Shown one piece after another: positions 1 to 34,300 of a DNA stretch of 64,000 bases. Positions within the stretch are counted from its first letter, which is position 1. Every line of letters begins with the position of its first letter. Made by a program: the position numbers and the translations under genes. A model generated the notes under the pieces. That model made no database searches. It was not told the origin of the DNA and saw nothing but the letters and a program-made list of their open reading frames with translations. This DNA is from an uncultured Gammaproteobacteria bacterium (lineage in GTDB: Bacteria > Patescibacteriota > Patescibacteriia > UBA11705 > JABHMO01): the NCBI GenBank assembly GCA_964590105.1, contig CAZPYM010000001.1, positions 302,172 through 366,171 on the forward strand. The letters run 5' to 3'.

Positions 1-378
1 CTTCTGCTCGGACAAGCATGAGCCATCTGCGCACACGGCCACTGCGCAGACATTGCTGTCGTCGCAGTCAACGTCTTCCGAACATTCAGGAAGATTCACC
101 TCTTCCTCAGTCAAAGAATCAGCAACCACGTCATCTTCGACCTCTTCGGTCGTATCCGCAGTCACATCCTCGAACCGGTAAGGAGGCTCACCATTGCAAA
201 ACCCTTCATTACAAAAAGAATGTCCGAGTTGAAAACAGTCCGAATTAACTGAGCACTCCGGCTCAGACACCTCTGAGGAAACATCTTCCTCAGCTTTCTG
301 GACTGCGTCCTTGTTGTCACACCCAGTAAACATAAAAACCACCAGTGATACCAAAGACACAAGAATCAATTTCTTCAT
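1..378 (-). CDS. Cys-rich secreted lipoprotein; 5' portion only, since the start is at 378 and the ORF runs off the window edge
   Basis: My own translation of the minus strand from the ATG at 376-378 gives MKKLILVSLVSLVVFMFTGCDNKD..., a signal peptide plus lipobox (FTGC). It is followed by acidic Cys-rich repeats (ECSVNSDC..., ECSEDVDCDD...) and stays open to position 1. GC is ~50%, above the local background. It is absent from the ORF track only because it is incomplete. Confidence 0.5.
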   Translation of the reverse strand, partial: MKKLILVSLVSLVVFMFTGCDNKDAVQKAEEDVSSEVSEPECSVNSDCFQLGHSFCNEGFCNGEPPYRFEDVTADTTEEVEDDVVADSLTEEEVNLPECSEDVDCDDSNVCAVAVCADGSCLSEQK

Positions 379-1222
379 TTCGCTTCCCCTTTGTAGTTAA
401 GACACCTTGTCAAACAACATTCAAAAACCACAACTACACAAACATCAATAATTTCGTGCAATTGTTGTTTTTGAATTATTAGTTTTAATATATAATTAAA
501 GCTAATTTTTAATATTTAGTCAAGAGGAAAATGACTGTATGTCAGCGGGTGTATGAAAAAAAAAGGAATTTATGGTAAAATTAGCTTAGGGCACAAGCTA
601 AAACATAAACCGCTTCTTTATGCTTTATGGTATAGCACATTTTTAAAAATTCAAAGTTATGTTTTTTACTCTAAGAGCATGAATGCTGCGAACAAACCAA
701 TTATTTGTGTTGAACAGCCTTAGAATGGTGATATTTATCCTTACTGTGTCAATAAAAAGTACCACTTTCCTGCAAAGGGTAAATAGAAAATCAACAGGCG
801 CTAGTTGAATTTGTCAAAGTTTACAAGAGATTGCCTGATTTCAAGAATATTAATGACGAATGGGCTGTGTAATACATTGCCTATAATGTCAGAAATGTTG
901 TCAGAAATTTGAACAGTGAAAGGGCTGCAATCGGTACATTCAAAAGTGTTTACGGATATGTGCCTAGCACCTCGCACCAGTGGTCAATCATGAGAGCAAT
1001 TGGGTACACCGGAGCAAAAAGATAGTACATTTAGAAACGTTAGTATAGAGAGGGGACGGCTTAGGCTGTCTCCTTTTGTTTTCAGGAAAATATGCTATAA
1101 TAAAAAAACTGTTATAGCGAGCAAACAATATCGAAGTTCACGCTTGTTCAACAATTTATTTTAATTTTGTTGATTATAATTTGCTTGTTCTTTGTATTTT
1201 GTTTGTTATTTGTAATTTTGTT

Positions 1223-16809: not shown

Positions 16810-19431
16810 CTATTTAAATACCACCTTCCCCTTGACTAATTCAACGGAAAGTTTACCCTTGACTTTGCCCTCAATCATTTGCAAAGCTAATTCGTCAAGT
16901 AATTTACTTTGAATCAATCTTTTCAGCGGCCGGGCGCCAAATTGAGGATCATAGCCCTGCTTGGCCAGCATATCTTTCACTTCATCGCTAAAAGTAATTT
17001 TAATTTCCTTATCTTTTAATCGGCGCTCTACTATTGCCAGCTGAAGATCAACAATCCAACGAATATCTGCTTCTGTCAAAGCGTCAAAAATAATTATTTC
17101 ATCAATGCGATTCAAAAATTCAGGCCGGAAATGATCTTTTAGTTTTCCCAGTATTTTGCTATCAGCATCTTGTCTTGATTTTGTTTCTTTATTACCAAAA
17201 CCCAAATCAGACTTTGTTAAAGATTCGAGTATTGTGTCCGAACCAATATTTGACGTCATAATGATAATTGTGTTTTTGAAGTTAACAGTACGGCCCTTGG
17301 CGTCAGTCAATCTGCCGTCGTCTAAAATTTGAAGCAATGTATTGAAGACTTCAGGATGCGCCTTTTCAATTTCATCAAATAATACAACTGAATATGGTCG
17401 GCGTCTGACTTTTTCAGTCAGTTGGCCGCCCTCATCATAACCAATATATCCCGGAGGTGAGCCGATTAATTTTGAAACCGCGTGTTTTTCCATAAATTCA
17501 GACATATCCACTCGCACAATCGCGTCTTCGCTATTGAACATAAATTCAGCCAGTGATTTAGCCAGCTCGGTTTTGCCGACACCGGTCGGGCCGAGAAATA
17601 AAAATGATCCAATAGGCCGATTTTCTTCAGACAAGCCGGCTCTTGATCGGCGGAGTGCATTTGACACAGCGGCAATTGCTTTTTTTTGTCCAATAACTCG
17701 TTTTGATAATTCTTCTTCAGCATGAGCCAGTTTTTCTATTTCACTTTGTAGCATTTTTGAAACCGGAATACCTGTCCACTTGGACACAACCTCGGCAATA
17801 TCTTCTTCATCAACTTCTTCTTTTAATATCTGCCGTCCGCCGGGGCCTGACTGCACTTTTCGAAGGCGGGTTTGCAAATCTTTGATGGCTTTTTCATGTT
17901 CAGGGATTTTGCCATAGCGAATTTCCGCCACTTTGTCGTATTCTGCTTTTCTTTCAAGTATTTCTGCTTCTTGTTTTAATTTATCAATTTCCTTTTTCGC
18001 TTCTTGAATTTGATTGATCAATTCTTTTTCCTTTTTCCAATGCAACTCAAGCCGATTGGATTTTTCTTTTAATTCTTCCAGCTCTTTTTCAATCTCTTTT
18101 AATTTTTTCTTGGTGGTTTGGGTTTTCTCTCTAGCAATGGCCTGCTTTTCAATTTCCAGTTGCATGATTTTACGTTTAAATTGATCCAGTTCGATCGGCA
18201 TGCTATTTAACTCAATGCGCAATGACGAAGTAGCTTCGTCCACGAGGTCAATAGCTTTGTCCGGCAAAAATCTGTCAGTAATATATTTTTGTGAAAGCTT
18301 GGCGGCCGCCACAATCGCATCGTCAGTAATTCGAACGCCATGGTGAACTTCATATTTTTCCTTGATACCTCGTAAAATTGAAATAGTGTCTTCAAGCGTC
18401 GGCTCGAGCACCATGACTGGCTGAAATCTTCTTTCCAGAGCTGCATCTTTTTCAATATATTTTTGATATTCTTTTAGCGTTGTAGCGCCAACACAATGCA
18501 ATTCACCGCGAGCCAGGGCGGGCTTTAGCATATTTGAAGCGTCAAGACTGCCTTCAATAGCGCCTGCACCGACAATTGTATGAAGCTCATCAATAAAAAT
18601 AATATATTTATCTTTATTCTTTTTTATTTCTTGAAGGATTGCTTTCATTCGCTCCTCAAATTCACCGCGAAATTTTGCGCCAGCGACAATTGAACCAATA
18701 TCCAGGCTTAAAACTTCTTTGTTTTTTAAATTTTCAGGCACATCGCCGGCCACAATCCTTTGTGCCAAACCTTCTGCCACAGCTGTTTTACCAACACCGG
18801 GCTCGCCAATTAAAACAGGGTTGTTTTTCGTGCGACGAGATAAAACTTGCAATAGTCTTCTGATTTCTTCGTCTCGCCCAATTATCGGATCAAGTTTTTC
18901 TTGTCGCGCCTCTTCAGTAAGATTGACTGTGAATTTTGCCAATACATCCCGCTTGTTTTCCGGATCAGGAGAATCAACCTTTTGATCACCCCTAACCTCG
19001 CTTAGAATTTTCATTACAGCGTCATAATTCACACCAAATGCTTGCAATATTTTACTGGCCGTTGAGTCAACTTTCAAAAGTGAAAGTAGCAAATGTTCAG
19101 TGCTGACAAATTCATCGCCCAGAGTTTTGGCTTCTTTTTCTGAATTAACCAAGCAATAATTCATCTGCGGAGTAACCGCCACCTGACCGTTCGGCCCTCC
19201 GGACAATGGTCCTTTTGGCAATCGGGTTAAGGTAGCTCTAGCTTGTTGGATCATTTGTTCAATAGGAATTTCCATTTTCTTTAGCACTGTCAAAACAATG
19301 CTCTCGTCTTGTTGCAGCAAAGCAAAAAGCAGATGAAGGGTATCAATCTGCGAATGTTTGAATTCAAATGCCAGCGCCTGCGCTTCTTGCAGGGCTTGCT
19401 GTGAATTGGTAGTGAATTTGCGGATGTCCAT
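16810..19431 (-). CDS. clpB: ATP-dependent chaperone ClpB
   Basis: N-domain [18 protein letters not shown], two AAA+ modules (GEPGVGKT and GPTGVGKT) and a long middle coiled coil; 873 aa. Confidence 0.95.
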
Positions 19432-19654
19432 ATTTCAATAAAAATATTATACCAATATCACACTAATATTGCACAAATATTATTACAACAGCAGTTTTAA
19501 TATTTGTTTAATATTCGTTCAATATCTAATTAATATTTGTTTTAAATAATTAGCAGTCACAAGTAAGGAGTGCTAATTCATTATACAATTCAATAAAATA
19601 TTGTCAAGCGAATAACATTCGCACACTAGACTGCGAAAACAACTTACTGCCTGG

Positions 19655-20635
19655 TCAAACATTGCCAATATAAACATTTTTCAAGCCGGTTGCCAGACCG
19701 ATTTTTTTTGCTCGATTAAGGGTGCTGATTGAAGTAGGGGAGACATCTTTCATTTTATTTGCCGGGTGAAAAGCGCTGACATGCCAGACAAGCGACAAAT
19801 CAATGTCCGCCAAAAAATTAGCAATTTGCTGCAATTCTCCGTTGCTGTCATTCAGGCCCGGAATAATCAAAGTCGTTACTTCAATATGTACCTTGTTTTC
19901 ATGGCAAAGTTTGATATTCCGCAAAACCGGATCAAGCCTCGCCCCGCAAACTTGCTTATAAGTCAAATCACTAAAAAACTTCAAATCAATATTTATAGCA
20001 TCCAAGTACGGTTGAATTGCTCTGAATGTTTCCAGCGAAAAATAACCGTTTGAAACCCAAATATTTTTTAGCTTTGCTTGTTTGGCCAATTTCATTACAT
20101 CAAGAGCAAATTCCACAAAAATAGTCGGCTCGGTATAAGTATAGGCAATGCTCTCGCAATTATTTTCTATTGCCAAATAGACAACGTCTTCCGGATTAGT
20201 TTTGGAACCAGAAATCCACTCCTCTTCTAGAATATGTTCGCTAAACTGGGCGATGTCCGCATTCTGACAATGAGCGCATTTAAAATTACAACCGACCGTG
20301 GCGATTGAATAGGTAAGTGTACCCGGCAAGAAATGATAAAGAGGTTTTTTTTCAATCGGATCAATGTTCTGAGCAATTAATTTTCCGTAAACCAAACTGT
20401 AAAGCTTGCCACCTTTATTTTTTCTGACATTGCAAACTCCCACGCCGCCATTTTGAATAACGCATTTATGTTCACAAGCCAGACATTGAACCAGCTTGTT
20501 TTTTTCCTGCTTGTAAAACAAGGCTTCTTTCATATAATCTCCTACTTTTATTTTAGCAAATTTCATGATATAGTTCAAAACATAGAGCACGTCACCCGCA
20601 GTATTAGAAAAATTTTTAATCCGGATTTTATTCAA
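19655..20635 (-). CDS. radical SAM protein, AmmeMemoRadiSam-system radical SAM enzyme-like
   Basis: CNFKCAHCQN (CxxxCxxC) radical SAM cluster plus additional Cys clusters; 326 aa. Confidence 0.75.
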   Translation of the reverse strand: MNKIRIKNFSNTAGDVLYVLNYIMKFAKIKVGDYMKEALFYKQEKNKLVQCLACEHKCVIQNGGVGVCNVRKNKGGKLYSLVYGKLIAQNIDPIEKKPLYHFLPGTLTYSIATVGCNFKCAHCQNADIAQFSEHILEEEWISGSKTNPEDVVYLAIENNCESIAYTYTEPTIFVEFALDVMKLAKQAKLKNIWVSNGYFSLETFRAIQPYLDAINIDLKFFSDLTYKQVCGARLDPVLRNIKLCHENKVHIEVTTLIIPGLNDSNGELQQIANFLADIDLSLVWHVSAFHPANKMKDVSPTSISTLNRAKKIGLATGLKNVYIGNV

Positions 20636-20676
20636 CCCAACTTTTTTTATTTATAATTTGTTTGTGATTTGTTACT

Positions 20677-20691
20677 TCCGCCATAGGCGGA
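20677..20691. promoter_or_regulatory. CCGCC-ata-GGCGG mini-hairpin embedded in the TTTGTAATTT-type leader 40 bp upstream of the LigT gene
   Basis: cttccgccataggcggacgag. The surrounding motif tttgtttgtgatttgtta...taatttgtaattt matches the gltX leader, into which this hairpin looks like an insertion. Confidence 0.4.
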
Positions 20692-20719
20692 CGAGTGTAA
20701 TTTGTAATTTATCATCATT

Positions 20720-21262
20720 ATGCGATGTTTTCTAGCCATAAACCTATCAGACGAGATAAAGGATTACCTGGAAGACCTTATTCTTAAAATTGGCAAATCA
20801 ACGCCTTACTTGCGCGTAAAATGGGTAGAAAGAGAAAATCTACATTTAACACTTGGTTTTATTGAAAATATTGACGAGAGTACGCTAAAAAAACTTTCAA
20901 CAGACCTGGACGACCTTTCATTGCCGGAAAACCTTATCCTATGTTTAGGTGAGCTAGGACTATTTCCAAATGACATCAAACCTCGGATTGTAAAAATTAG
21001 TTTGCACGACACTGAAAAAAAGCTGGGATTAATCAATGACCAAATAAAACAAATTTTCAAGCAAAACAACCTTCCGATTGACGAAAAACCATTTTCTCCA
21101 CACATTACGCTCGGACGGATCAAGACCGCGAGCGCCTGGGTCCGATTAGAAAAAACAGAACCACGGTGCTTCAATGTCGTCTCCATTGACTTGATGAAAA
21201 GCAAACTAACACCGTCTGGACCGACTTACAGTTGCCTGAAACGCGTAGCGCTTAACGCGTAG
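20720..21262 (+). CDS. thpR: RNA 2',3'-cyclic phosphodiesterase (2H phosphoesterase, LigT/ThpR)
   Basis: Two H-x-T-x motifs (HLTLGF and HITLGR) within 180 aa. Confidence 0.8.
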   Translation: MRCFLAINLSDEIKDYLEDLILKIGKSTPYLRVKWVERENLHLTLGFIENIDESTLKKLSTDLDDLSLPENLILCLGELGLFPNDIKPRIVKISLHDTEKKLGLINDQIKQIFKQNNLPIDEKPFSPHITLGRIKTASAWVRLEKTEPRCFNVVSIDLMKSKLTPSGPTYSCLKRVALNA

Positions 21263-21395
21263 CGCGGAACGTATAACTTGAGTAAACCCAGTTAATTAGG
21301 TTAATTGGTTAATTAAGTTAATTGGGTAATGAGTAAGCTGACTTTCGATTTTAACTTTTCCCTCTTAACTTTTAACTTTTTGCGTCATACTTGTC

Positions 21396-21429
21396 TGCCT
21401 TTGGCAGAGGCGCATCCGCCTTTGGCGGA
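21396..21429. promoter_or_regulatory. two adjacent mini-hairpins (ctgcc-ttt-ggcag and tccgcc-ttt-ggcgga) in the leader of the WecB/NUDIX gene
   Basis: tctgcctttggcagaggcgcatccgcctttggcggaaac, preceded by gttaatt(a/g)g and ttaactttt tandem repeats at 21300-21380. Confidence 0.4.
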
Positions 21430-21462
21430 AACTTTTCCCTTTTGCCTTTCAACTTTTATCTT

Positions 21463-22662
21463 ATGCCATTTCCACCGGAATTTCAAAACAAAGCAATAAT
21501 CCTCGGCGTTACAATTGATGATCGTCCAATGGATTTTGTATTAAATAAAATTGAACAATTTTTGTGTTCAAATGCTCAGCACTCAATTTTCACGCCAAAT
21601 CCTGAAATTTGCCTGCGAGCAGAAAAAGACGAGGACTATCGCTACACTCTGAACACCGCATCAATCAAGATTCCAGACGGATTTGGTTTGAAGCTCGGCG
21701 CTAAAATCCTCGGTCAAAAACTGGAGAATCGAGTTGCCGGCTCTGATCTGACAAAAAAACTTTTGCACAAATATTCAAATGCAAAAACAGAACTTAAACT
21801 TTTTATTGTCCTTAGAACCGACTCGCTATCAAAGGAAAAAGATATAAAACAAATATTTAGTGCAGATTATCCCAATATCAAATTTAAACTTGGAAATATT
21901 GATATAAAAAAACCTGATGATTGCGACAAATTATTAAACGATATTAATTTATTTGAACCACAAATGCTTTTTGTCTGCCTCGGAGCGCCGACCCAGGAAA
22001 ACTGGATTTATAAATATTTAAAACTAATGCCCAGTGTCAGAGTGGCGCTCGGACTTGGCGGCAGTATTGACTTCCTGACCAACAAAATCAAACGCGCACC
22101 AAAAATAATGCGCGACCTCGGAGTGGAATGGTTTTACCGCCTGTATCAGGAACCGAGCAGATTGAAACGGATAAAGAACGCTACCGCTGATTTTCTGCTT
22201 GCTTGCCACAAATGGAAAAAACGTATTACCAATGAATATCGCCTCAATGTGGTTGCCGTAATAAAAAACCGCCAGGGAAAATTTCTGGTGCAAAAAAATC
22301 CGCGATTCAAAGACCACTGGCAATTTCCGCAGGGCGGATTAAATATTGGCGAAGATCCTGATGCTGCCGTGGTGAGGGAAGCCAGTGAAGAAATCGGCGC
22401 GCCTGAACATTTTTTAAAAGTCATAAAAAAAATCCCAGAATCTCATAATTACGATTGGCCGGAATATGGAAAACTTATAAAAGGCTATAAAGGACAACAA
22501 CAAACAGCGTATTTGCTGGAATATTCAGGCAATGAAACTGACATTGACCTATCAGCCAGCCATGAAGCCGAGGAGATCCGCTGGCTTGATAAACAGGATT
22601 TACTCAAAACAATTCACCGTCATCGTCATGAATTTGCCAAAAAAATCATCAAGCACCTCTAA
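21463..22662 (+). CDS. WecB/TagA/CpsF-family glycosyltransferase fused to a C-terminal NUDIX hydrolase
   Basis: The N-terminal part (ILGVTID...IFTPNPEI...DGFGL...CLGAPTQENWI...GGSIDF) matches the WecB/TagA family. The C-terminus carries the Nudix box GGLNIGEDPDAAVVREASEEIG. I used the ATG at 21463, since the ORF upstream of it covers the hairpin region. Confidence 0.75.
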   Translation: MPFPPEFQNKAIILGVTIDDRPMDFVLNKIEQFLCSNAQHSIFTPNPEICLRAEKDEDYRYTLNTASIKIPDGFGLKLGAKILGQKLENRVAGSDLTKKLLHKYSNAKTELKLFIVLRTDSLSKEKDIKQIFSADYPNIKFKLGNIDIKKPDDCDKLLNDINLFEPQMLFVCLGAPTQENWIYKYLKLMPSVRVALGLGGSIDFLTNKIKRAPKIMRDLGVEWFYRLYQEPSRLKRIKNATADFLLACHKWKKRITNEYRLNVVAVIKNRQGKFLVQKNPRFKDHWQFPQGGLNIGEDPDAAVVREASEEIGAPEHFLKVIKKIPESHNYDWPEYGKLIKGYKGQQQTAYLLEYSGNETDIDLSASHEAEEIRWLDKQDLLKTIHRHRHEFAKKIIKHL

Positions 22663-22855
22663 AAACAAAAACAATGAAACAAAAAAACAAGAAAGCGACG
22701 AAACAATAAGACAAAAAACAAGTAATTGGAAAAATTTATAATATTTGTAAATTTGTTTTCTCTCGCTATTTGTAGCATTTGTAAAAACTTGTCAATTCGT
22801 CTTTTGTAAAAAAACAGCGAACACCGAGATTCAAGTGTTCGCTTTTGCGTTCCTG

Positions 22856-23503
22856 CTAGTTTAACGCGCGTGCGCGCGGAGATTGTTTTCTTTGACTTTC
22901 GTACAGCGACAATTCTTCGCCTCCAATAGAGGCCAGTACCGAGATGCGCGGAGTGAAATTAATCTCCACACCGCTGCGCACTAGTGCGATCACATTGTAC
23001 GCCTTGAAATATGAAAATTGCTCCACAGCGATGATGCAGTACCCATCCTCCTGCGCCTGAGGCCAGCTGATATCTTCCTCTGCTTCATCCAGCCTGATCT
23101 GAAAACTGACCAAGACGGAATCGGCAAAATGCGTTTGTTCGATCGGTTCATTATTGGCGTAAAGAATGATCATCTCGCCGCCATCTTCGATGGCATGGTA
23201 AAGATTGACGCCGGTAATGGACGTCAGTCGATGCAGGGCTACGGGGAGTTCGCGTAGCTCCAGAAATGGTTGACCGACTTTTCTCGACTTGAATACTCTC
23301 GCCAGATCACGGATATTCGGAATGCTGGTCGCGCCTTCGGTCGGCAGAACAAAAATCACTTGCTGGCTGGATTCGGCGTCATTCAGACAAAAACACCACG
23401 AGTGCATCACTGCCTTAACCACCAGCCTGCTTGTCAAGAAAATCGGCCAAAAAGACTCATTGACCGGGATTACCAGATCCTTGCCATCTTTGTTTTGGAT
23501 CAT
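22856..23503 (-). CDS. hypothetical protein (215 aa) in a compositionally atypical island
   Basis: Strong RBS (aagggaggtgaaat-ATG); GC ~50% against a ~35% background; no recognisable motif. Confidence 0.5.
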   Translation of the reverse strand: MIQNKDGKDLVIPVNESFWPIFLTSRLVVKAVMHSWCFCLNDAESSQQVIFVLPTEGATSIPNIRDLARVFKSRKVGQPFLELRELPVALHRLTSITGVNLYHAIEDGGEMIILYANNEPIEQTHFADSVLVSFQIRLDEAEEDISWPQAQEDGYCIIAVEQFSYFKAYNVIALVRSGVEINFTPRISVLASIGGEELSLYESQRKQSPRARALN

Positions 23504-23627
23504 ATTTCACCTCCCTTTGTTTTGGGGTGAATTAATAATGAACAAGCTTATATATTCAGCATAGCTTTCAGACATCAGATAGTCAAGCAAAACATTCACA
23601 GTTTCGGCTAAACAGCTCCTATATTTT

Positions 23628-23669
23628 TTTAAAAGAAAAGAGCTGTATGTTAGATGCAACATACAGCTC
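23628..23669 (-). terminator. rho-independent terminator downstream of the high-GC 317-aa gene
   Basis: A perfect 12-bp inverted repeat gagctgtatgtt-agatgc-aacatacagctc, followed on the minus strand by ttttctttt. Confidence 0.6.
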
Positions 23670-23734
23670 AATTTGCTTGGAATTTTTTGGGACTGAAACG
23701 TCCCTGGTGGGAGAGAAAGGAAGGAGGGGTGAGG

Positions 23735-24685
23735 CTAGCGGTCGCGGCGGGCGTTCTTGCCGTCGCGCTTCCAGCCCTTCTTGTCGCGCTGACCGATCCG
23801 CTTCTGAAGCTCGTCAACCTTGGCCTGGCCGAGATACTCAGCCAGGGTGCAGGTCGCGGCCTGGCGCTTCTGCTGTCCCTCGCGCTCCTTCTCAGCGAGA
23901 TACTCGGCCTCCTTCGGACCGAAGAACATCTTGTAGCGCAGGAGCCCGAGGTAGGCGTCGCTCGAGTTGAGCGAGACCTCGTACTCCTCGCCACGCGCGT
24001 TGCGGTTCTTGCTCGCGATCGACGTGAAGATGTCGACATCCGACTCGAGCACATACGCCCCGTACGATCCGAACTTGCCGAAACGCCGCGTGACGAGGCG
24101 AAGCCCCTTCACGTGGGGCACGCCGCCGTTGCCGTTCGTGCTCTGCTCGCGGCAGAATCCACGCTCCCACTCGAAGAATTCCGAGGGGTTGGAGGGCGCC
24201 GTATCCTTCAGGCCGGCGGCATACGCCACCTCGAAGGCCTCGGTCCGCTCGGAGCACCGCTCGATGTTCTCGATGGGCGCCGTACCGACGATCGGCTTCA
24301 TCAGCCCGAAACCGGCCCGAACGAGCTTCGGCATCGGGGTCCAGACGGATCCCTCACCGAACCGGTCGGTGACCAGCTTGGCGTACTGTTCCTTCTTCTC
24401 CGCATCCTTGTCCGCCGCCGCCTGATAGGCGACAATCGCATCACAGAGCTCCATCTTCTGGAAGCGCCCTCCGGCGACCCGCAGAGACTCCATGACCTTC
24501 TGCGCCGCTTCCGGCGTCAGGAGCAGATAGTCGTCGTCCACTCGGATAACGACCGCCTTGGAAATCGGCCTCACCTCGAGACCGCCCTCGCGCTCCAGGA
24601 CGGTGATGTCCTTGGGAACACCGGGAGTGGGGATCGAGCCGCCAAACTCCGCCACGAATGCCTTGAAACCAACGATCGTTTTCAT
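23735..24685 (-). CDS. hypothetical protein (317 aa) with foreign codon usage (GC ~65%, GC3 near 100%) and a C-terminal Lys/Arg-rich tail
   Basis: RBS ggagga 6 nt upstream of the ATG at 24685 (MKTIVGFKAFVAEFGG...). Amino-acid composition is balanced, and the protein ends ...QRDKKGWKRDGKNARRDR. The long plus-strand ORF over the same region is L/R/A-rich antisense junk. Confidence 0.6.
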   Translation of the reverse strand: MKTIVGFKAFVAEFGGSIPTPGVPKDITVLEREGGLEVRPISKAVVIRVDDDYLLLTPEAAQKVMESLRVAGGRFQKMELCDAIVAYQAAADKDAEKKEQYAKLVTDRFGEGSVWTPMPKLVRAGFGLMKPIVGTAPIENIERCSERTEAFEVAYAAGLKDTAPSNPSEFFEWERGFCREQSTNGNGGVPHVKGLRLVTRRFGKFGSYGAYVLESDVDIFTSIASKNRNARGEEYEVSLNSSDAYLGLLRYKMFFGPKEAEYLAEKEREGQQKRQAATCTLAEYLGQAKVDELQKRIGQRDKKGWKRDGKNARRDR

Positions 24686-25041
24686 CACTTTCCTCCAGTT
24701 AGTTGTAAAAGATACTTCCTCATCCAACAGCACAATTCTTATCTCAAGTCCTTGTTGCGATAAAAACTGTGCTGTCAAATAATAACAAATTTTACACGAT
24801 ATATAACAGGGAAGTATAGCATACATCAAATATTTTGTCAAGAGGTGTTATTTGAAGTTTTATTATTACACTAAAATTAGACAAACAAACAAGTTACACC
24901 TAAGTAACATTTCAGAGGTTATTAACTGTTTACAATACGCATAATTTGAGCTATAATTTTGGGGAAGCTGAAAAAGAAGCACTTTGTTATTTCCGCTTTA
25001 TTGTTTGTGATTTGTTATTTGTAATTTATTATTATCCATTT

Positions 25042-26568
25042 ATGCTCCCAACCAACAATATCCGCGTGCGAATCGCGCCAAGCCCGACCGGCTTTGTGCA
25101 TGTGGGCAACCTAAGAACCATATTGTACAACTTTTTATTTGCCCGGCACAACAAAGGTAAATTTATAATTAGAATTGAAGATACTGATCAGTCTAGATTA
25201 GTGGCCGGTGCAGTGGAAAACCTGTTGCAAGTTTTGCAGTGGGCGGGGATTGAAGCGGATGAGGGCCCGTACCTAACAAAAGACAACAAAGTCAAAGAGC
25301 GCGGCGATTTTGGACCTTATACGCAGTCTGAGAGATTGGATATATACAAACAGCAAATCCAAGTGCTATTGGACAAAAATAAAGCCTATCATTGTTTTTG
25401 CGATAAACAAAGGCTAGACGATCTAAGGGAAGATCAAAAGAAAAATAAACAAGCGCCGAAATATGATAATTTCTGCCGCAAGCTGTCGCAAAAAGAAGCT
25501 CAATCCATGCTCGATTCCGGAGCCTCGTCTGTAATCAGATTCAAAATGCCGGAAAACAGGCAAGTGGTATGCGATGATCTGATTCGAGGCAAAATCATTG
25601 TCAATACCAAGGATATGGACGATTATGTACTGATTAAATCCGACGGTTTTCCGACTTATCATTTTGCTAATATTGTAGACGATCATTTCATGAAAATAAC
25701 GCATATAATGAGAGGGGACGAGTGGATCGCCTCCACGCCAAAACATGTTTTACTTTATGAAGCGTTTGAATGGCAGCCGCCGATTTTCGCCCATCTGCCG
25801 ACTTTACTGAACAAGCAAAAGAAAAAATTAAGTAAACGCGACGGCGACACTTCAGTTCAATCGTTTATTGACCAAGGATATTTGCGCGACGCTTTTATCA
25901 ATTTTATTGCGCTACTCGGGTGGAATGCGGGCACTGAACAAGAAGTTTACACGCCCAATGAACTGATTCGGCAATTCAGTCTGGATAATGTTCACAAGTC
26001 AGGCGCAGTCTTTGATCTTGACAAACTTGACTGGATAAACGGATTATATATTCGAAAATTATCCGAAGACGAATTATATGAAAAATGCCTGCCTTATCTG
26101 GTGGAGGCGAATATTATTACTGTCGGAAAAAATATTGTCATCAATGAAACCAATGAAAAAGTAAAACCGTCTTATATCAAAAACATATTGCAGTTAGAGC
26201 AATCAAGGATAAAAAAACTCAATGAAATTCCGGAGGCTGTAAAATTTTTCTTTGTCAAAGAGCTGACATATGACGCAGACGGCTTGGTTTGGAAAAAATC
26301 AAACAAAAAAGACACGTATGACCATCTGCAATCTCTGCTCGAAATTTTGCAGGGAATCTTAGAGAGCTCTTTCACACCGGAAAAATTAAAAAAGACCATT
26401 ACCGAGCATATTGAGAAAAATAACATCGACACCGGCACTCTACTCTGGCCAATGCGCTTTGCGCTCTCCGGCCAGCAAAAATCACCCGATCCCTTTGAAA
26501 TCGCATCTGCGCTTGGGAAGGACAAGAGCCTGGACAGAATAAAAAAGGCGGTTGAAAAACTTAAATAA
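25042..26568 (+). CDS. gltX: glutamyl-tRNA synthetase
   Basis: RIAPSPTGFVHVGNLRT (HIGH-type) and KLSKRDGD (KMSKS-type). I chose the start at the ATG at 25042 (MLPTNN...), because the upstream part of the listed ORF is leader motif. Confidence 0.9.
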   Translation: MLPTNNIRVRIAPSPTGFVHVGNLRTILYNFLFARHNKGKFIIRIEDTDQSRLVAGAVENLLQVLQWAGIEADEGPYLTKDNKVKERGDFGPYTQSERLDIYKQQIQVLLDKNKAYHCFCDKQRLDDLREDQKKNKQAPKYDNFCRKLSQKEAQSMLDSGASSVIRFKMPENRQVVCDDLIRGKIIVNTKDMDDYVLIKSDGFPTYHFANIVDDHFMKITHIMRGDEWIASTPKHVLLYEAFEWQPPIFAHLPTLLNKQKKKLSKRDGDTSVQSFIDQGYLRDAFINFIALLGWNAGTEQEVYTPNELIRQFSLDNVHKSGAVFDLDKLDWINGLYIRKLSEDELYEKCLPYLVEANIITVGKNIVINETNEKVKPSYIKNILQLEQSRIKKLNEIPEAVKFFFVKELTYDADGLVWKKSNKKDTYDHLQSLLEILQGILESSFTPEKLKKTITEHIEKNNIDTGTLLWPMRFALSGQQKSPDPFEIASALGKDKSLDRIKKAVEKLK

Positions 26569-26581
26569 CAACCATATTCAG

Positions 26582-26607
26582 AAGCCCGATTAAATACGGG
26601 CTTTTTG
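26582..26607 (+). terminator. rho-independent terminator after gltX
   Basis: aagcccg-attaaata-cgggctttttg. Confidence 0.55.
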
Positions 26608-26644
26608 AGTAATTTTTTTTATAATGCTATAATATTCCTGCACT

Positions 26645-27838
26645 ATGAAACATCGCGGAAAAATATTTTTGCTGGCAATATGCATTTTAATGATGCCTAG
26701 TTTGATATTTGCCCAAACGCTGGACGAACTTAATACTGAAATAAAAAACAAACAAGAAGAAATCACTCAGATAAAAAAAGAAGCTGCCATTTATCAAAAA
26801 AATATCCGGGTCAAGCAGGAGGAGGCTGCTTCGCTCAAAAATCAGCTTTCAATACTGGAAAACAAAATCGCCAAAACAAACCTGGACGTAAAGTCGACAA
26901 AAAAAGAAATCGAGCAAGGTCAACTCGAAACCAGAAACATTGAACTTCAAATCCTGTCGAAACAAGACGCTATTGATAATCAAAAACTGGCACTAACAAA
27001 TATCCTGCAAGAAATCCGTCAAAACGATCAAGAAAATACCTTAAAAATATTTCTAATGAATGATTCTTTGTCGGATTTTTTTAATGAAACCGAATACACA
27101 AAAGATCTGCAACAAGGCCTCCAGGAAACATTGGGCAATTTAAAATCCGAAAAAAAGCTTTTACTGGCGAAAAAAAACGAACTGGAAAACAAGCAAAAAG
27201 AATTACTTGCTTTAAATGATCAACTTGAGCTCGAAAAAATAGAATTAATCGGACAAACAGATTATAAAGAAAATTTATTAGTTTCCACAAAAAATTCCGA
27301 ACAAAAGTTTACCGAATTATTTTGGCAGGCCAAGGAGGAGCAAGAATCTATTAGCTCGTCCATAACAGTTTTAGAAAAGCAAGCCAGACAAAAACTGGAC
27401 CAGTTAAAAACCGAACAACCAAAACTCACTGATAGCCAACTTTCTTGGCCAGTACCGAAAAATAAGATTACCGCTTATTTTCACGATCCTGATTATCCTT
27501 TCAGATATTTATTCGAGCATCCAGCAATTGATATTCGCGCCAAGCAAGGCACGCCAATAGCTGCGCCGGCCGAAGGCTATGTTTTAACGGCAAAAGACGC
27601 GGGGATGGGCTACAGCTACATCGCGCTGATTCATGCCAATGGAATTTCAACAGTCTATGGCCATGTCAGTAAAATATTTGTCAGGGAAGACGAATATGTG
27701 GCCAAAGGAGAAATCATCGGCCTTAGCGGCGCCATGCCGGGTACACCGGGCGCCGGCCGCCTGACTACCGGACCGCATTTGCACTTTGAAGTCAGAGTCA
27801 ACGGCATTCCGGTAAATCCTCTGGATTATTTGCCATAA
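26645..27838 (+). CDS. M23 family metallopeptidase with an N-terminal coiled-coil (EnvC-like)
   Basis: Signal peptide, a long coiled-coil (QEEITQIKKEAAIYQKN...) and a C-terminal M23 domain (GMGYSYIALIHANGISTVYGH...GPHLHFEVRVNG). Confidence 0.85.
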   Translation: MKHRGKIFLLAICILMMPSLIFAQTLDELNTEIKNKQEEITQIKKEAAIYQKNIRVKQEEAASLKNQLSILENKIAKTNLDVKSTKKEIEQGQLETRNIELQILSKQDAIDNQKLALTNILQEIRQNDQENTLKIFLMNDSLSDFFNETEYTKDLQQGLQETLGNLKSEKKLLLAKKNELENKQKELLALNDQLELEKIELIGQTDYKENLLVSTKNSEQKFTELFWQAKEEQESISSSITVLEKQARQKLDQLKTEQPKLTDSQLSWPVPKNKITAYFHDPDYPFRYLFEHPAIDIRAKQGTPIAAPAEGYVLTAKDAGMGYSYIALIHANGISTVYGHVSKIFVREDEYVAKGEIIGLSGAMPGTPGAGRLTTGPHLHFEVRVNGIPVNPLDYLP

Positions 27839-27864
27839 ATGCAACCATTAAGTTAAATAAAATA

Positions 27865-27890
27865 AAAGCCTGTCAAAACAGGCTTTTATT
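27865..27890 (+). terminator. rho-independent terminator after the M23 peptidase gene
   Basis: aaagcctgt-caaa-acaggcttttatt. Confidence 0.55.
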
Positions 27891-27949
27891 GAGCAACAGA
27901 GTAACATCAAAATCATCTGCCAATAAATCAACACGAACAACTGGCCTTC

Positions 27950-28306
27950 ATGCTATTCGCAAAAATTTGCGATATTCTTCAGGTTAAAGGCTTGAGATTT
28001 AAAATCATGCAGAGAAAAACCAGCAAAAGTAATAAAAGCTATACGCTCGGGTATATTAATTTGCAAACCAAAACAATTGTGCTGGATATTTATTCACCGA
28101 AAACCCTGAAGCCAAAGAGCCTGAATGGGCTTATCCGCACGCTGGCGCATGAAATCGCTCATCTACAAAAACCGCCATACCGCCAGAGATACAAGGGAAG
28201 ATGGATCGCCCGCCAGCATTATCCTGAATTTTATAAACAAACTGAAAAAAATATAAATAAAATCAAAGCTGATCCGATCTTGGGAATGCATTTTCGAAAA
28301 GATTAA
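27950..28306 (+). CDS. SprT-like zinc metalloprotease domain protein
   Basis: YTLGYINLQTKTIVLD...LIRTLAHEIAHL (HExxH); the true start may be the internal ATG near 28007. Confidence 0.5.
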   Translation: MLFAKICDILQVKGLRFKIMQRKTSKSNKSYTLGYINLQTKTIVLDIYSPKTLKPKSLNGLIRTLAHEIAHLQKPPYRQRYKGRWIARQHYPEFYKQTEKNINKIKADPILGMHFRKD

Positions 28307-28383: not shown

Positions 28384-31300
28384 TTATTTTACCACTGCCA
28401 TCCAGTCAGCTTCGGTTGAAGGAAACTTGCCGTTCGCAGTTTTGAAATCCTTGACTGCTTGCAATCTTTCAACCGATGTTTTGGCCTTGCTGGCCGCTGT
28501 ACTGCCGTATGAGATGAAAGTTACAACATTCCAGCCCTCTGCATCCGGAGATTGGCCGGCGAGAGCGATATAATCATTTACAGCTGTGATTTCATTTTTC
28601 AGGTCTCTGTCAGCACTCACTGGCAAAGCTGGCACTGCGTTATCTTTTGGCGCTTCTACAACTGGCGCTGCTGGTACTGTCTCAACTGGCGCTGGTGCCG
28701 GAGCTGTCATAGAAACACCTGCATAAGCAATTCCGCGCAATACAGACCACATGAAACCGGTATTTGGCATTTGCTTGAATGATTTAGAGAAGGTTGCTAA
28801 AGCAGTCTTTTCCTTAGCCAATTCACGCGCTTCAGGTCGCAGATAGTAGGCGACAGAGTGGATAAACTTTTCTTCAGCCGGTTTGCTAAAATCAACCAAT
28901 CGGCCGAACACCTTTACAAAAGCTTTCAAAGCTTCTGCCTCGCGTCCGATTATTCTAGCGGGAGTTGTTCCTTCAGCCATCTTGGCCACGCTCTCCCAAT
29001 CAGAATCAGTACTGGGGATATGATTGTAAACAGCTTTATAATCTTCAAGCAATCCCACTCTTTCACGTTCCGCCATTTTCTTGACTTTATCAGTTGTTCC
29101 ATAAGTCAGGAAATCTACAACTCGCCATTCATTGGCCGTAGCCGGACTCTTGCCGACAAGTTTAGCATAATCTTTTACGCCTTGAATTTCCTTCTTAAGT
29201 TCTCTTGCCGCCGGTTTTACCGGCACCACATTTGTCAGGGTAACGACTTCTGAAGCAACTTCCTTGGAAACTTCTTTAACTTCTGTTTTGACAACCGTAG
29301 TTATTTCTTCCACTGTTGTCGTGACTGCTTCATCCGTGGTCGTTGTGGTAGTTGTTGTCGGTTCTATTATCGTCGTTGTAGTGGTTGTCGCGGCCGCTCC
29401 GCCGGTGGTATCAACCGCGCGCCGTGTTGTTGTAGCGGATGCCGCGACTAGAGGCGGATGAGTGATTGAAACCGAGGTCAAGTGAGTAATCTTTCCCATG
29501 CAATAATTTTCAGTCGTGTTGCAGGTTTGATTATCAAGCGGCATAAACGAGTCAGTCGTATCATCGTAATATGACAATGTGAGCAAAGATTCATCGGTTA
29601 CGCCCGCGCTTGTTAATTCAGCGGCCGTATAGTGGAGAATAATCTCAGCGCCTTCTCCGTTCAATTGGTTCACATCCTCACCTCCGGCTTTGGCTGTAAT
29701 TTCAACTTCAGTCCCGACTAAAGGCAACGTTGTATCGAGCGCCGGCAAGTCCACCTGCTGAAAGGTCAACGTGCCGCTAGAATTCTGCCCACCGATAACT
29801 CCGGTGCCGGCGCTAATTTCAAGACCGGTGTTATTTGCGTCGTTTACTACTACACCGCTCGTTGGAACAATCGTTCTGCTATCAACGCTTTTTATATCTG
29901 TCGGATCAGATGTCAACGTGATGTCCTTGTTGCTGAGCGAACTACCACTAACCGCGACAGTGGCCGATCGCGTTGTTTCAGCGTGCAATGGGCCATCCGC
30001 AATCACTGACCATGTGCCATCTGTTACTGATAACTGGTAGCTACCATCTTGCTGAATTGATCCCTTGGCTTTTGCTCCAGTAGTCGCCTCGGTGGCGTAG
30101 ACAAATCCGCCAAGATTCATAGGCGTTGATCCGTCAGATTCGTAAATCGTGCCTGAAATTGAATTGCCTTTTTCAACCAAATCATTGTCAATCTGAATAT
30201 CTTCGTCTGTGGTATTGCCATCAAAATCAAAATTTACATTTCCCGTAACCTCCAAGTTTGAATATTTTGCCGGCGTGCCGTAATCCTTGTGTTCGGCTTT
30301 AATGCTGTATGTGCCTTCTTTGACACTCATTGAATAGTCGCCGCTGGCGTCCGTGGTTGTTTGCTTTACCAATCCCGTTGTTTCATTAATAAGCAAAACC
30401 GCGGCATTGGCTATGGGATTATTGGAATTGTCAAGAACTGTGCCTAAAACCGTGCGCATTGTCTGCGCCGAAAGATCAACAGTGGTACTTTGATTTGAAG
30501 TTGACAAATCAATTGTTGAAGACGGCGAAAAATCTCCCATGCCGTCAACAAACACCATCAATCTATATGTTCCGGCAGGAACGCTGATAGTCTGGCTCTG
30601 GCTCAAATCGGGAAGCGGCATGCCTCGGCGCACAGCTCCACGGCTGTTGGTCGTGGCTGACCCGGCTATTTCCTTTACTTCTATAAACCCGCGCATATTT
30701 GAAGTTCCGCCGGTAAAAGCGACTGTCAATGTTTTCAAACTTGCCAAATCATAACTGATATTCACGGTTTGATTGCCTCCGTTTACAGTAACATTTTGTC
30801 CTAGTTCTCCGTAATCAGGCGACCACATTGACACTCTGTATGTACCGTTGCCGGCTTTGATTGAATAAGAACCGTCATTGGCCGTTGATTCATTGCGATG
30901 GTATCCTCCGCTCGGCCAGTCATTAACCGTATCCCAGGCTTCTACCATTATCGGAACACTACCCTGTGCTGTACCGCCGATTGAAACGGAGCCGGAAATG
31001 GTGTAGCAGGTGGAAGATGTCGGCTGAAGATTTTCAGTCGGCTTATTCGCGCCCGAAACTGTAATAGCCTTGGTAATTGTGCCACAAGTATCAGTTCCCG
31101 ATGGCATTTGCGCCGTCACTGTCCAAGTGCCGTCGCCAACATTCAGCATATAGTCGCCGTCCGAATCCGACATTGTTTGCGCAGACTGGTGCGTCGTTGT
31201 TTCGTTTGCCATTACGCTGGTGTAGTTGAGAGGATTGCCGCTCAAATCCATTACTTTTCCTGAAATCATGTAGTCGGCTTTATACATTTTGATTAAGAAC

Positions 31301-34300
31301 GGAGCGGCGGTAGTAACATAATCGCCTTCAAGATTAACATCGCAAGTGGTATTGCCGTCGGAAACCCCAACCGTATTATCCTTTACTGCTACCGACCTAA
31401 ACGGAGCCTCACCGATTCCGGGTTTATGAGCTCCGATTTCATAATTTCCATTGGCCGCGACTTTGAGAACAAAACTGCCGTCCGCGAGGGATTGCGTATG
31501 AGAGCCCATGCCACCGAAACCCATTGGCTGGCTGGCCCAAATTTCAACATTTTGCATTACATTATACACTTTCGCGCCAGAAGAAAAAGCTTGATTCATG
31601 CCGTTTACCAATTGAACTGTCGCGCCGCTGATTGACAATATTTTATCATTTTTTGTGTTCGTGCCGTCAGTCACAACTATTGAATCATTGGCATTAAATC
31701 CCGTGCCACTCGCCAAAGTCAGGCTGGTCGCGCTCGAAGTGTAATTCGCGCCGAGCGTAGTTTCCTTTGACACAACGCATCCGAGTATTTCTTTACTAGC
31801 GCTATTGATGTTAAAACTTAATTCAGTAATTGTTGCATTCGTATCATTGCGCTTAATAATTGGAGTTCCGCCAATACCGCTGACTTCAACCTGAACATTT
31901 GTCGGCGGCATCCAATCAGGCATCGGAGGCGGTCCCATCATCGGCCCCTTTGGCATAGCCGGCCCAATGCCAACCATATATATGCCGTTGGAAGGGAAGT
32001 ATAGAGTGGAACTGTTATTAGTGACTGCGCCGGTCAAAGTAGTGGTATTTACCGCGAACGAATTAGGCCCGCCCGCGAAAATATCAAGATCTTCTCCGTC
32101 AGCGCTGAATGTCCCGGACACCTTGACTGTCAATGATGCTGAATTGGACGCTGAAAATTTAGCGAAGGTTAGCGCTCTCGTCAAAGTCTTTGTTCCCGAA
32201 TTCCAGTTTTCGCCCGAACCGGGCACACAAATTGGTTCCGGATTCATCTGTCCGCTGTATTTATTTGCGCCAAGAGTAACCGTCGGCTCGCTAAAAATAT
32301 TATAACAGCCATCCGGCAAATTTGACCAAGTCTGCGTTCCCGTGCCATTGGCAATGTTAACTGTCGCGTCCAAAGGACCGGTCATGGGAGATCCCATCAT
32401 CAATTGAAAAGTGCCGGTGCCGCTTTCAGCCGCGATTGTCGCCGTGATATTATTTGCTCCGGCCGCGTTGATAAAGAAAGGCATTGAAGTCATGCTGGAC
32501 ACGTTCGTGCCGTCCGCTTTGTACGCTTTCATGTCAACGGTGTAGCCATTGGAATTGAAATCCTGAACTTTTGTCGGATTGACGATGTTTTTCACTTCAA
32601 AATGAAAGTAATCAGGATCGCCGGTTTGTCCGCCGTTCGTATTCAGCCACAGAGTCATTGTCTGACCTGAAACCGTCACGCCGTCGCTCGCCGCGCCGCC
32701 CTTTGTCGCGGCGCCCGCGCCGTCGTCAGCAACTCCCGAAGTCTTGAATTTGACTATTGACGGACCGCTCATATTCAGATCATTTTTATTGGGATTATAC
32801 GGATCCGGAATCGCCGAAACAATGTTAACGCCTTTTGGAAATGTCAATTTAATATATGCTCCGTCGTCAAGCGCATTGGCTGATTTGCCCGATGGCGGAA
32901 TAGGGAAGTCAATCATGTATGTGGTCGTAGCGCCGGCCATCATATTCATGGGCATGGCTCCGACTCCTCCCATCATCATGGCGTCTTTTTCTGAAAAACC
33001 TCCAAATCCTGTAGGCGCGCCCGTCATCATGGCGCCGCCCATGGCCGAAGGACCGGAAAGTCCGCCGCAAGCGGGTCCGATCATACCGCCTGTTTTCGCC
33101 TCATCGCGCAAAACTCCCTTGGCGGAATTAGCCGTAGCGTCAATTGGATTATTCGACAGATCCATAACATTTGAAACAGTAATAATAAATTGATCTGTTT
33201 CTTTTGTCGCACCGGTGAAGGATAGACCCTTAATTTTGACGGTGTTTGTTTCATAATCATAATCAAACGACACGCCGGCCGCTCCAAGATTTTCAGTACT
33301 ACCGGTGCCGTCGGCGCCAAAAGTCAATGCGTAGTTGCCCGACTTCAGTACGCTCCCTGTCCAAAGCGAAGCATTGGACGAGGCGTCACTTTGCTTCAAC
33401 GCGCTCATTGGTCTTGAGAATGTCACCGCGCACTGGTATCCGTCGCAATTCGCGACTTCAACTCTGGGCTTGGTTGTGTCAAATGTAGACGTCATGGTAA
33501 ACGAGCGCGTCAAAGTGGTTGCTCCGCTCGGATTACCATACAAGTCTTTTATTCCACTTGTGCCGCCAAGAGTAATAGTCAAGGTATATTTCATACCCGG
33601 CGTCAAGCCGGTTGTCGGGATTACCTTGATACTCTGGCTCATTGAATCATATTTTACTACGGCCGGAATTGTTGACGTTCCGGTTTTCAATGTAACGGTG
33701 GCCGTGTTAACATTACCCGGTTCCAGCGATTCATTGAAACCAATATCCACGAAGCCGAAATCCAATGGCACTCCCGTGGCATTATTGTCCGGCCAACTGC
33801 CATTAATGCCGGGAGCAGTTGAATCAGTAACGTCCGCGACTGTAAAATTGACCATAAATTGATTGGCTCCGGGATCGTTTGGATTGCCAAGCGTTACACC
33901 CGAAGACGCTCGGATTCCCGCCTTTACCCTTATTTCATACTCGCCGGCCATTAAATTTGAAGACAAATTCATTATGGCGAAAAGCTTATCGTTCGAGGTT
34001 GTCACTGAACTTATATAAGTACTGGTAACATCTGTAAAAGAATTACCGCTTTTTTGAAATAACTTGAATGTGCCCGTGTTAACGCTACTTGAATCAAGCG
34101 ATTCGCTGAATTCAAACATCATTTTTGACAAATTTTTTGATACACTCCACGCGCCCGACGACGGCTGCGCGCCTTTCACAAAGAAAGGAGAATAGTCTCC
34201 GCCGCTCCATTGGCCTGTAGTCGTGTTAAAATTATCCGCCATTGTCATATAATCAGCATTATCGGTCATAGATCCAAAATTACCGGCATCATAATATGCG

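Follow-up and report, generated by a model that had tools for sequence, protein, structure and literature searches.

Among described systems, those closest to the locus reported here are un-ameliorated genes and islands of horizontal origin, for which the amelioration model of transferred genes is reportedly that of Lawrence and Ochman, and the vertebrate genes whose composition is attributed to GC-biased gene conversion, among them mouse Fxy, which lies at the pseudoautosomal boundary, and the GC-rich bird genes termed 'hidden'. Flagellin, type IV pilin and S-layer genes, with which the locus also shares features, are not known to be GC-enriched relative to their genomes, and the long structured leaders of S-layer and ompA mRNAs serve stability. 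Here we analyse a 64-kb stretch of contig CAZPYM010000001.1 (64,000 nucleotides; hereafter the window), in which one open reading frame (ORF), ORF-A (23735..24685, minus strand, 316 amino acids), reaches 63.7% GC in a background of ~40-41%. An earlier note, made from the sequence alone, had picked out this compositional island and had offered three readings of it: a gene cassette transplanted into a local expression context, an assembly chimera, or a gene under unusual constraint. The last is the option that fits the data presented below, according to which the GC content of ORF-A is very probably a maintained, vertically inherited property of the gene.

Composition of ORF-A and its orthologs

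The island is real. ORF-A has GC contents of 0.63, 0.43 and 0.85 at the first, second and third codon positions (GC1, GC2 and GC3), compared with ~0.48, 0.30 and 0.40 in the neighbouring genes, and none of the 42 other ORFs of at least 120 amino acids in the window has a similar GC3 (mean 0.414, standard deviation 0.055, maximum 0.60), which places ORF-A at z = +8.0 for GC3 and z = +5.0 for GC. It is the only segment of the window to exceed 51% GC over 951 nucleotides, and its flanks are AT-rich, with 30.4% GC at 24686-24945 and 33.0% at 23504-23688. Two figures of the earlier note need adjustment, since it had put the background at ~35% GC and the length of the product at 317 amino acids. Its claim that the compositional jump coincides with the boundaries of the coding sequence holds for the AT-rich flanks and requires qualification at both ends of the gene. 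At the 5' border, GC falls to 0.40 or less within 30 nucleotides upstream of the ATG (6/6 orthologs), and the 150 nucleotides upstream of ORF-A are 33-36% GC in all loci; inside the gene, however, codons 1-10 have a GC3 of 0.6 as opposed to 0.86 for the remainder, a relaxation over the first ten codons (0.6-0.7) like the 5' codon ramp of ordinary translated genes. At the 3' border, GC- and C-rich sequence (a C-rich tract and a GGGAC/GUCCC stem-loop) continues for ~45 nucleotides beyond the stop, and in the orthologs a GC content of 0.4-0.7 persists over 30-60 nucleotides.

Codon choice in ORF-A is the inverse of that of the genome. Lysine is encoded by AAG and AAA in a ratio of 25:1 (182:634 in the genome) and glutamate by GAG and GAA in a ratio of 27:3 (148:511), leucine never by TTA or TTG, and arginine by CGN codons. 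The preference for G-ending codons for Lys, Glu and Gln amounts to a plain G/C preference, unlike the usual optimal-codon pattern, and the bias reaches the synonymous first positions of Leu and Arg codons as well as GC1 and GC2. The amino-acid composition is shifted along with it: Gly, Ala, Arg and Pro together make up 0.27-0.34 of the residues in the ORF-A orthologs versus 0.17-0.22 in gltX, and Arg is about as frequent as Lys. In an Akashi-type test, GC3 was 0.82 at conserved codons, 0.84 at variable codons and 0.81 in lineage-specific insertions (Fisher p = 0.47), an evenness indicating that the bias is not tied to translational accuracy. No G-quadruplex motifs were found. As a separate observation, four of the six ORF-A orthologs (window, L010, L013 and L018) have a two- to threefold excess of GATC over the number expected from base composition (7 observed vs 3.1 expected, 11 vs 3.8, 13 vs 5.8 and 11 vs 3.7), and CGATCG is found three times in the ORF-A of the window.

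The sequence is well supported. Eight separate assemblies (ENA ERZ27248939, ERZ27248895, ERZ27248920 and ERZ27248953; Logan SRR8437217 and SRR8437287; JGI 3300028191 and 3300028168) match the window with 100% identity over the stretches they share with it and jointly cross both junctions of ORF-A. One contig of 9,047 nucleotides spans 27520..18475 with just two differences (21440 and 20584), both outside ORF-A, and the population of the window is clonal across all eight assemblies. The orthologous loci of other lineages have an identical architecture, each backed by several assemblies. A number of contigs end inside or near ORF-A (at 24445, 24162, 24018 [twice], 23929, ~24230 and 23698); such ends would follow from hidden variation or from low coverage of DNA rich in GC, and would not follow from a false join. 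In practical terms, such breaks mean that the gene is likely to be missing, split or under-represented in metagenome-assembled genomes (MAGs).

Related loci, which carry labels of the form L010, place ORF-A in a recurrent genomic setting. Among the relatives with long enough contigs, the arrangement gltX – ORF-A – ORF-B – wecG/nudix is shared by L010, L013 (Ca. Kuenenbacteria by its NCBI name), L016 and L018, and the slot recurs without ORF-B in a Falkowbacteria MAG (GCA_016214755.1; L021 and L017). ORF-A, a genuine protein-coding gene, is inherited vertically in a fixed chromosomal slot within a Patescibacteria clade resembling Falkowbacteria and Kuenenbacteria. The window and L010 are the closest pair for gltX, ORF-A and ORF-B alike, as expected if the three genes have diverged together. 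Identity between lineages is 67-78% for gltX, 66-70% for the M23 peptidase and 79-84% for ClpB, as against 22-45% for ORF-A and 33-47% for ORF-B; judged from these values, the ORF-A protein evolves far faster than its neighbours.

The orthologs do not have a normal composition; they carry the same anomaly as the window. GC3 is 0.874 in L010, 0.805 in L013, 0.836 in L016, 0.848 in L018, 0.82 in L012 and 0.845 in L009, and it is 0.77-0.80 in the three ORF-A pieces of the Falkowbacteria MAG, with the coding sequence at 60-65% GC in every lineage. The neighbouring genes cover a much wider and lower range of GC3 (0.51-0.56 in L010, 0.33-0.42 in L013, 0.58-0.60 in L016, 0.29-0.30 in L018 and 0.37-0.50 in L017/L021). 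Where orthologs share a residue, the fraction of identical codons is 0.45-0.60, when 0.47-0.53 would be expected by chance from codon usage, and gltX behaves likewise; synonymous sites are therefore saturated. Saturation, together with a GC3 that is constant whatever the background, shows a gene-specific equilibrium upheld by a persistent AT-to-GC fixation bias, and not the signature of a donor, which would by now have decayed. In the literature that we searched, which is incomplete, no bacterial gene is described at such a compositional extreme throughout a clade.

Recombination and competing explanations of the GC content

Two accounts of this bias fit the observations, one invoking recombination, which we favour, and the other, a close rival, selection on the transcript. 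Evidence for recombination comes from the Falkowbacteria MAG, in which ORF-A lies at two scaffold ends, giving two versions of its 3' half. The two copies are 82.5% identical in nucleotide sequence and 82% in amino-acid sequence over this half (nonsynonymous divergence dN 0.118, synonymous divergence dS 0.60, dN/dS 0.20), and the 209 nucleotides after the stop are 98.1% identical. Identity along the copies changes abruptly, running through 0.80, 0.42 and 0.86 to ~140 nucleotides at 1.00, then 0.65-0.90, and 0.95-1.00 in the flank; in the first block, L021 is nearer to L009 (0.70) than to L017 (0.58). Such a mosaic marks gene conversion between divergent copies, which are either tandem paralogs or alleles from strains living side by side. 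In L021 there is, in addition, a direct duplication of ~70 nucleotides, which breaks the frame and may be an assembly error, as the isolate name suggests ~7x coverage. Comparisons of L011 and L019 with L018, and of L014 and L015 with L013, gave merely 0-2 single-nucleotide differences, the mark of clonal populations.

As a plausible mechanism, ORF-A would be a mosaic, recombining locus at which divergent copies recombine, and the resulting heteroduplex, rich in mismatches, would be repaired or converted with a bias that raises GC at all codon positions. This bias would also enrich the protein in Gly, Ala, Arg and Pro and speed its change, and it would act mainly where the copies differ, that is, in the coding sequence. 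We tentatively favour a recombination-associated AT-to-GC fixation bias as the cause of the GC content of ORF-A, since it covers a rise that is uniform and affects all codon positions, the altered amino-acid usage, the rapid evolution of the protein, the mosaic structure of the copies and the restriction of the effect to the variable segment. The wider account built on it, in which a maintained GC content and a recombination-linked bias are combined with an abundant nucleic-acid-binding product, seems to us almost as likely to hold as to fail.

Several points weigh against recombination as the cause. We know of no demonstration in bacteria of GC-biased conversion this strong (GC3 0.85 in a 0.29 genome), and GC enrichment is not known for the classical hypervariable bacterial genes (the fliC variable region and O-antigen loci). 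The 5' drop in GC is very sharp, to 0.40 or less within 30 nucleotides of the ATG in all six orthologs, and the fast-diverging leader stays AT-rich, whereas a regional process at the DNA level should enrich the leader as well. ORF-B evolves comparably fast but is weakly and inconsistently elevated in GC, by -0.01 to +0.18 (raised in three of five lineages). Finally, the mosaicism is that of one population, in which the copies could be tandem paralogs and not alleles, and the population of the window is clonal in all eight assemblies.

The close rival holds that selection acts on the transcript: a GC-rich, stably folded mRNA, poor in A/U-rich single strands, would resist endoribonucleases or receive special handling, and in combination with the strong promoter, leader hairpin, Shine-Dalgarno sequence and 3' stem-loops it would yield a long-lived mRNA and an abundant protein. 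We consider this explanation possible, if less probable than recombination. It accommodates the confinement of the bias to the coding sequence, sharpest at the 5' end, beside a fast-diverging yet AT-rich leader, as well as the plain G/C preference in place of an optimal-codon pattern, and it gives a role to the signals around the gene. The promoter (24813..24841, minus strand) consists of TTGACA, a 17-nucleotide spacer and an extended -10 element, TG-n-TATACT, and scores 11/12; only 8 sites in the window score at least 11/12 and only 3 of these have the TG, and the ORF-A promoter belongs to both sets. A TTGACA...TGCTATAAT site is also found upstream of the orthologs in L010, L013 and L018, so that a near-consensus extended -10 promoter is present at four of the five loci with sufficient upstream sequence. 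From the position of the -10 box, transcription would start at the head of a 5' leader of ~120 nucleotides (24686..24806, minus strand), which contains a hairpin of 27 pairs (24720..24782, minus strand), 24 of them contiguous (5 G-C, 13 A-U and 6 G-U). The six G-U pairs mean that this hairpin forms only in sense-strand RNA. Its minimum free energy (MFE) is -34.8 kcal/mol, with z = -4.7, and once GC is corrected for, only one local fold of the window is more exceptional. The leaders of L010, L013 and L016 form hairpins of similar size and unrelated sequence (z -4.4 to -5.8) and that of L018 a weak one; the long hairpin is thus retained as a structure, without sequence conservation, at four of five loci. 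A Shine-Dalgarno sequence, GGAGGA (24691..24696, minus strand), precedes the ATG by 5 nucleotides; both elements are as the earlier note described them, apart from a spacer that it had given as 6. On the 3' side, a stem-loop, GGGAC-GUUUCA-GUCCC, followed by an A run (23689..23704, minus strand), has no other match in the window and is also present in L010 and L013, and L016 has the variant GGGGC...GCCCC, in which both sides of the stem have changed; in these four lineages the stem-loop stands ahead of a terminator-like hairpin.

The folding of the coding sequence itself speaks less clearly for selection on the transcript. The summed local MFE is ~-48 kcal/mol per 120-nucleotide segment for ORF-A vs ~-22 for gltX, and in each of the six orthologs the native sequence folds more stably than its synonymous shuffles do (z -1.2 to -6.5, mean -3.4). 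This excess is merely suggestive, as it overlaps the controls, in which neighbouring genes average ~-1.2 and range from +0.4 to -4.2; the ORF-A of the window, at z = -2.05, does not exceed the M23 peptidase and WecG genes at -2.3. Moreover, unless it overrides protein constraints, selection on the transcript does not explain why the protein evolves so fast, why copies are mosaic or why amino-acid usage has shifted, and we know of no bacterial gene held at such an extreme for the sake of mRNA stability. In its general form, the proposition that GC-richness is itself selected, the clade-wide GC3 of ~0.85 arising through selection on the nucleotide sequence of ORF-A, is one that we likewise regard as possible. 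The purpose could be a very stable, RNase-resistant or specially handled mRNA, perhaps one bound by its own basic-tailed product. If true, this would be a natural bacterial case of strong, sustained selection on GC or mRNA structure over a whole coding sequence, one that encodes a previously unseen fold.

A third explanation, throttling by rare codons, is improbable. Here the minor codons (AAG, GAG, CAG, CTC, CGC and GCG) would slow or gate the translation of a harmful or regulatory protein, by a logic analogous to bldA/TTA control in Streptomyces. The inverse codon usage and the fast-evolving, clade-specific protein would be in line with this, but GC1, GC2 and amino-acid usage are shifted too, none of which codon-level control needs, and the near-consensus promoter and strong Shine-Dalgarno sequence argue for high output. 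In addition, tRNAs with GNN anticodons read C- and U-ending codons alike by wobble, with the consequence that half of the bias throttles nothing. No tRNA genes are present in the window or in the ortholog loci.

Recent horizontal transfer of a cassette from a high-GC donor into a local expression context, as the earlier note had suggested, would explain the sharp contrast with the flanks and the orphan status of a gene with few relatives, and is nevertheless very unlikely. At least five other lineages have the gene in the same slot at GC3 0.80-0.87, with saturated synonymous sites, in backgrounds of 0.29-0.57; searches of high-GC genomes, phages and plasmids returned no homolog; and the borders show no tRNA gene and no integrase or attC-like element that we noticed, although no dedicated repeat or attC scan was made.

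It is just as hard to credit that an overlapping antisense gene or a structured non-coding RNA dictates the composition. An antisense ORF of 369 amino acids (23654..24763, plus strand) does cover all of ORF-A, and local folding is strong. Yet two to four stops break the antisense frame in L013, L012 and L009, the GC1/2/3 pattern fits the minus-strand frame, Rfam gave two chance-level matches only (E 0.28 and 0.72; 20000..28000), and protein-level conservation and a confident fold back the sense ORF. The antisense frame is best seen as a by-product, for it needs only the absence of TTA, CTA and TCA codons in the sense strand. Least credible of all is a chimera, in which a high-GC fragment was joined into an AT-rich contig: many short contigs do terminate within ORF-A, but contigs from eight assemblies cross its junctions at 100% identity and the loci of other lineages share the architecture, which refutes this reading.

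Layout of the locus and its protein products

Downstream of its stop codon, ORF-A is followed by a C-rich, G-poor tract (23705..23734, minus strand; 50% C and 10% G in the first 40 nucleotides), and a pyrimidine- or C-rich tract is found after the stop in most orthologs. Pairing of this tract with the ribosome-binding site, as an anti-Shine-Dalgarno element, was considered and rejected, being no better than in shuffled sequences in any ortholog (z -0.9 to +1.25). Beyond the 3' stem-loop lies an intrinsic terminator (23631..23669, minus strand), the hairpin of which, at 23669..23640, has a stem of 12-13 bp, much as the earlier note had it, and is followed by TTTTCTTTT, the element as a whole being a stem plus UUUUCUUUU.

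ORF-B (22856..23503, minus strand) encodes a clade-restricted orphan protein of 215 amino acids; its GC content of 49.8% (GC3 0.58) is intermediate, as had been noted. It has its own ribosome-binding site (AAGGGAGGTG), a weak promoter-like site (23558..23586, minus strand; TTGACT, 17-nucleotide spacer, TATGCT; score 9/12), the surroundings of which are conserved in L008, and an intrinsic terminator (22816..22843, minus strand; 10-bp stem, then a T run). With a promoter-like site, weaker than that of ORF-A, a ribosome-binding site and a terminator of its own, ORF-B forms a transcription unit separate from ORF-A, and ORF-A is a monocistronic unit, apparently a strongly promoted one. Of the two-gene module that had been proposed, what remains is the adjacency of the two genes in five lineages; their transcription units are separate, their sequences are unrelated (hhalign probability 0.1), and ORF-B is absent from the Falkowbacteria MAG.

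The spacers around ORF-B contain repeated hairpins. In L008 (ENA ERZ27247124 k141_1044185), which has the closest relative of ORF-B (82% amino-acid identity), positions 1..256 hold four tandem units of ~62-68 nucleotides that immediately precede the ORF-B promoter, at the place taken in the window by the terminator of ORF-A; every unit contains a 10-bp GGAGGCTCCA/TGGAGCCTCC hairpin, and the contig begins within the array. Similar GC-rich hairpin elements are found in the spacers between ORF-A and ORF-B or between ORF-A and wecG of L013, L016 and L017. In L017, the place of ORF-B (556..950) is taken by ~390 nucleotides of non-coding DNA, 51-55% GC, between ORF-A and wecG/nudix, and this spacer holds repeated GTCATTGCGAG-type hairpin elements.

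On the other side of ORF-A, gltX (24946..26568, plus strand) is transcribed divergently and is followed by an M23 peptidase gene and a 2,890-amino-acid surface-type protein gene (28384..37056, minus strand). The latter has LTD, Big_5 and CarboxypepD_reg domains, a GC content of 48% and an unusually flat GC1/2/3 (0.48/0.49/0.46), and is syntenic in L010, L013 and L018. Beyond ORF-B lie genes for a WecG-NUDIX fusion, LigT, a radical-SAM protein and ClpB; the fusion (21391..22662, plus strand, 423 amino acids) joins a WecG/TagA-type glycosyltransferase to a NUDIX hydrolase and is kept in all related loci. Elsewhere in the window, two tandem paralogs of the Pro_CA_2 family (PF20393; putative carbonic-anhydrase-like), at 59921..60343 and 60476..60886 (both minus strand), share 40% protein identity; the first, with 56% GC, a GC3 of 0.60 and flanks of 27-32% GC, forms another GC island with the limits of a coding sequence, less marked than that of ORF-A, and the second has 35% GC. 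After correction for GC, the local RNA fold that stands out most in the window is that of a 90-nucleotide stretch at 416..505 (minus strand; -27.6 kcal/mol, 22% GC).

The product of ORF-A lies outside every known sequence family and fold, and the earlier view that no family could be assigned is borne out. Neither ORF-A nor ORF-B matched Pfam, PHROGs, PADLOC or NCBIfam, or PDB sequences in single-sequence and profile searches. In a word-indexed search of 5.8 billion protein clusters ORF-A matched itself alone, and an exhaustive HMMER scan of 1.84 billion representatives returned seven relatives at 29-45% identity. Every relative with readable context sits in an AT-rich contig of the candidate phyla radiation. 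Profile searches of a 90%-clustered protein database added no further relatives, and none turned up in phage, plasmid or viral-contig collections or, in protein searches, in high-GC genomes; locus scans with a narrower alignment (A2) found one GTDB locus and two metagenome loci. AlphaFold2 modelled ORF-A with a predicted local distance difference test score (pLDDT) of 82 and a predicted template modelling score of 0.62 from an eight-sequence alignment, compared with a pLDDT of 38 from the single sequence. In the model, a small alpha/beta domain at the N-terminus is accompanied by a helical hairpin, a beta-rich core and, towards the C-terminus, a helix of ~60 residues and a tail without order; a structural search with it gave no significant match to known folds, including viral capsid and nucleocapsid folds. 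ORF-A therefore defines a new, fast-evolving protein family restricted to this clade, the fold of which is predicted with confidence and has no known counterpart. The ortholog in L010 has 418 amino acids, and that in L013 reaches 569 through duplication of the core domain.

The basic tail noticed earlier is kept in all orthologs: it is rich in Arg, Lys and Gly, the net charge of the final 35 residues being +5 to +9, and the body of the protein is neutral or acidic in five of the six. No signal peptide, membrane segment or hydrophobic segment was found in the orthologs. Nucleic-acid binding through the conserved tail can reasonably be inferred. Given this tail, signals that favour strong expression, a cytoplasmic character and evolution of a diversifying kind, the product may be an abundant cytoplasmic protein that binds nucleic acid by its tail and is under diversifying pressure, engaged in some conflict or interaction, a proposal that we advance tentatively. 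Our literature search found nothing relevant on abundant unknown Patescibacteria proteins.

Comparison with known systems

ORF-A resembles an un-ameliorated horizontal acquisition in being a ~1-kb island with sharp borders, an orphan product and a codon usage opposite to that of its host. It differs in that the anomaly is common to syntenic orthologs at saturated synonymous sites, in genomes with backgrounds of GC3 0.29-0.57, amelioration being demonstrably absent. It also lacks a donor, and neither mobility genes nor a tRNA nor repeats were noticed at its borders, which were not scanned specifically for repeats or attC sites. Of four features of genomic islands, ORF-A shows one, atypical composition; patchy presence, amelioration and signs of mobility or a donor are lacking. 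Islands of unusual composition are commonly taken for recent transfers, and composition-based detection of horizontal transfer would misread ORF-A, a gene in which a foreign-looking GC3 outlasts the saturation of synonymous sites.

With the slot-conserved hypervariable genes (fliC, type IV pilin and S-layer), ORF-A shares a fixed slot, rapid mosaic evolution, a strong promoter and a long structured leader; its product has no sequence or fold similarity to flagellin, pilin or S-layer proteins, and no signal peptide or membrane segment. Translationally selected genes have in common with it the strong promoter and Shine-Dalgarno sequence, G-rich first positions, C-ending NNY codons and a relaxed 5' ramp. 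In contrast to them, ORF-A uses the minor codons of its genome (G-ending Lys, Glu and Gln codons, GCG, CGG and CTG), its bias is not stronger at conserved residues, and its shift of +0.44 in GC3 is far above the usual expression-linked shifts. The disordered Arg/Lys/Gly-rich tail recalls viral capsid and nucleocapsid proteins and RGG-type RNA binders.

The vertebrate genes subject to GC-biased conversion share with ORF-A an extreme GC3, raised GC1 and GC2, fast protein evolution and poor assembly, and evidence of recombination is present at the ORF-A locus, in one population. Unlike them, ORF-A is a single gene in a haploid bacterium, with a very sharp 5' border at the start codon. Taken together, these comparisons present ORF-A as a variant of processes of known kinds, within a protein family that is itself new, and as a natural experiment on the determinants of GC content (mutation, selection and biased conversion), one that sets the contrast inside a single genome, with sharp borders, and allows comparison across at least six independent lineages.

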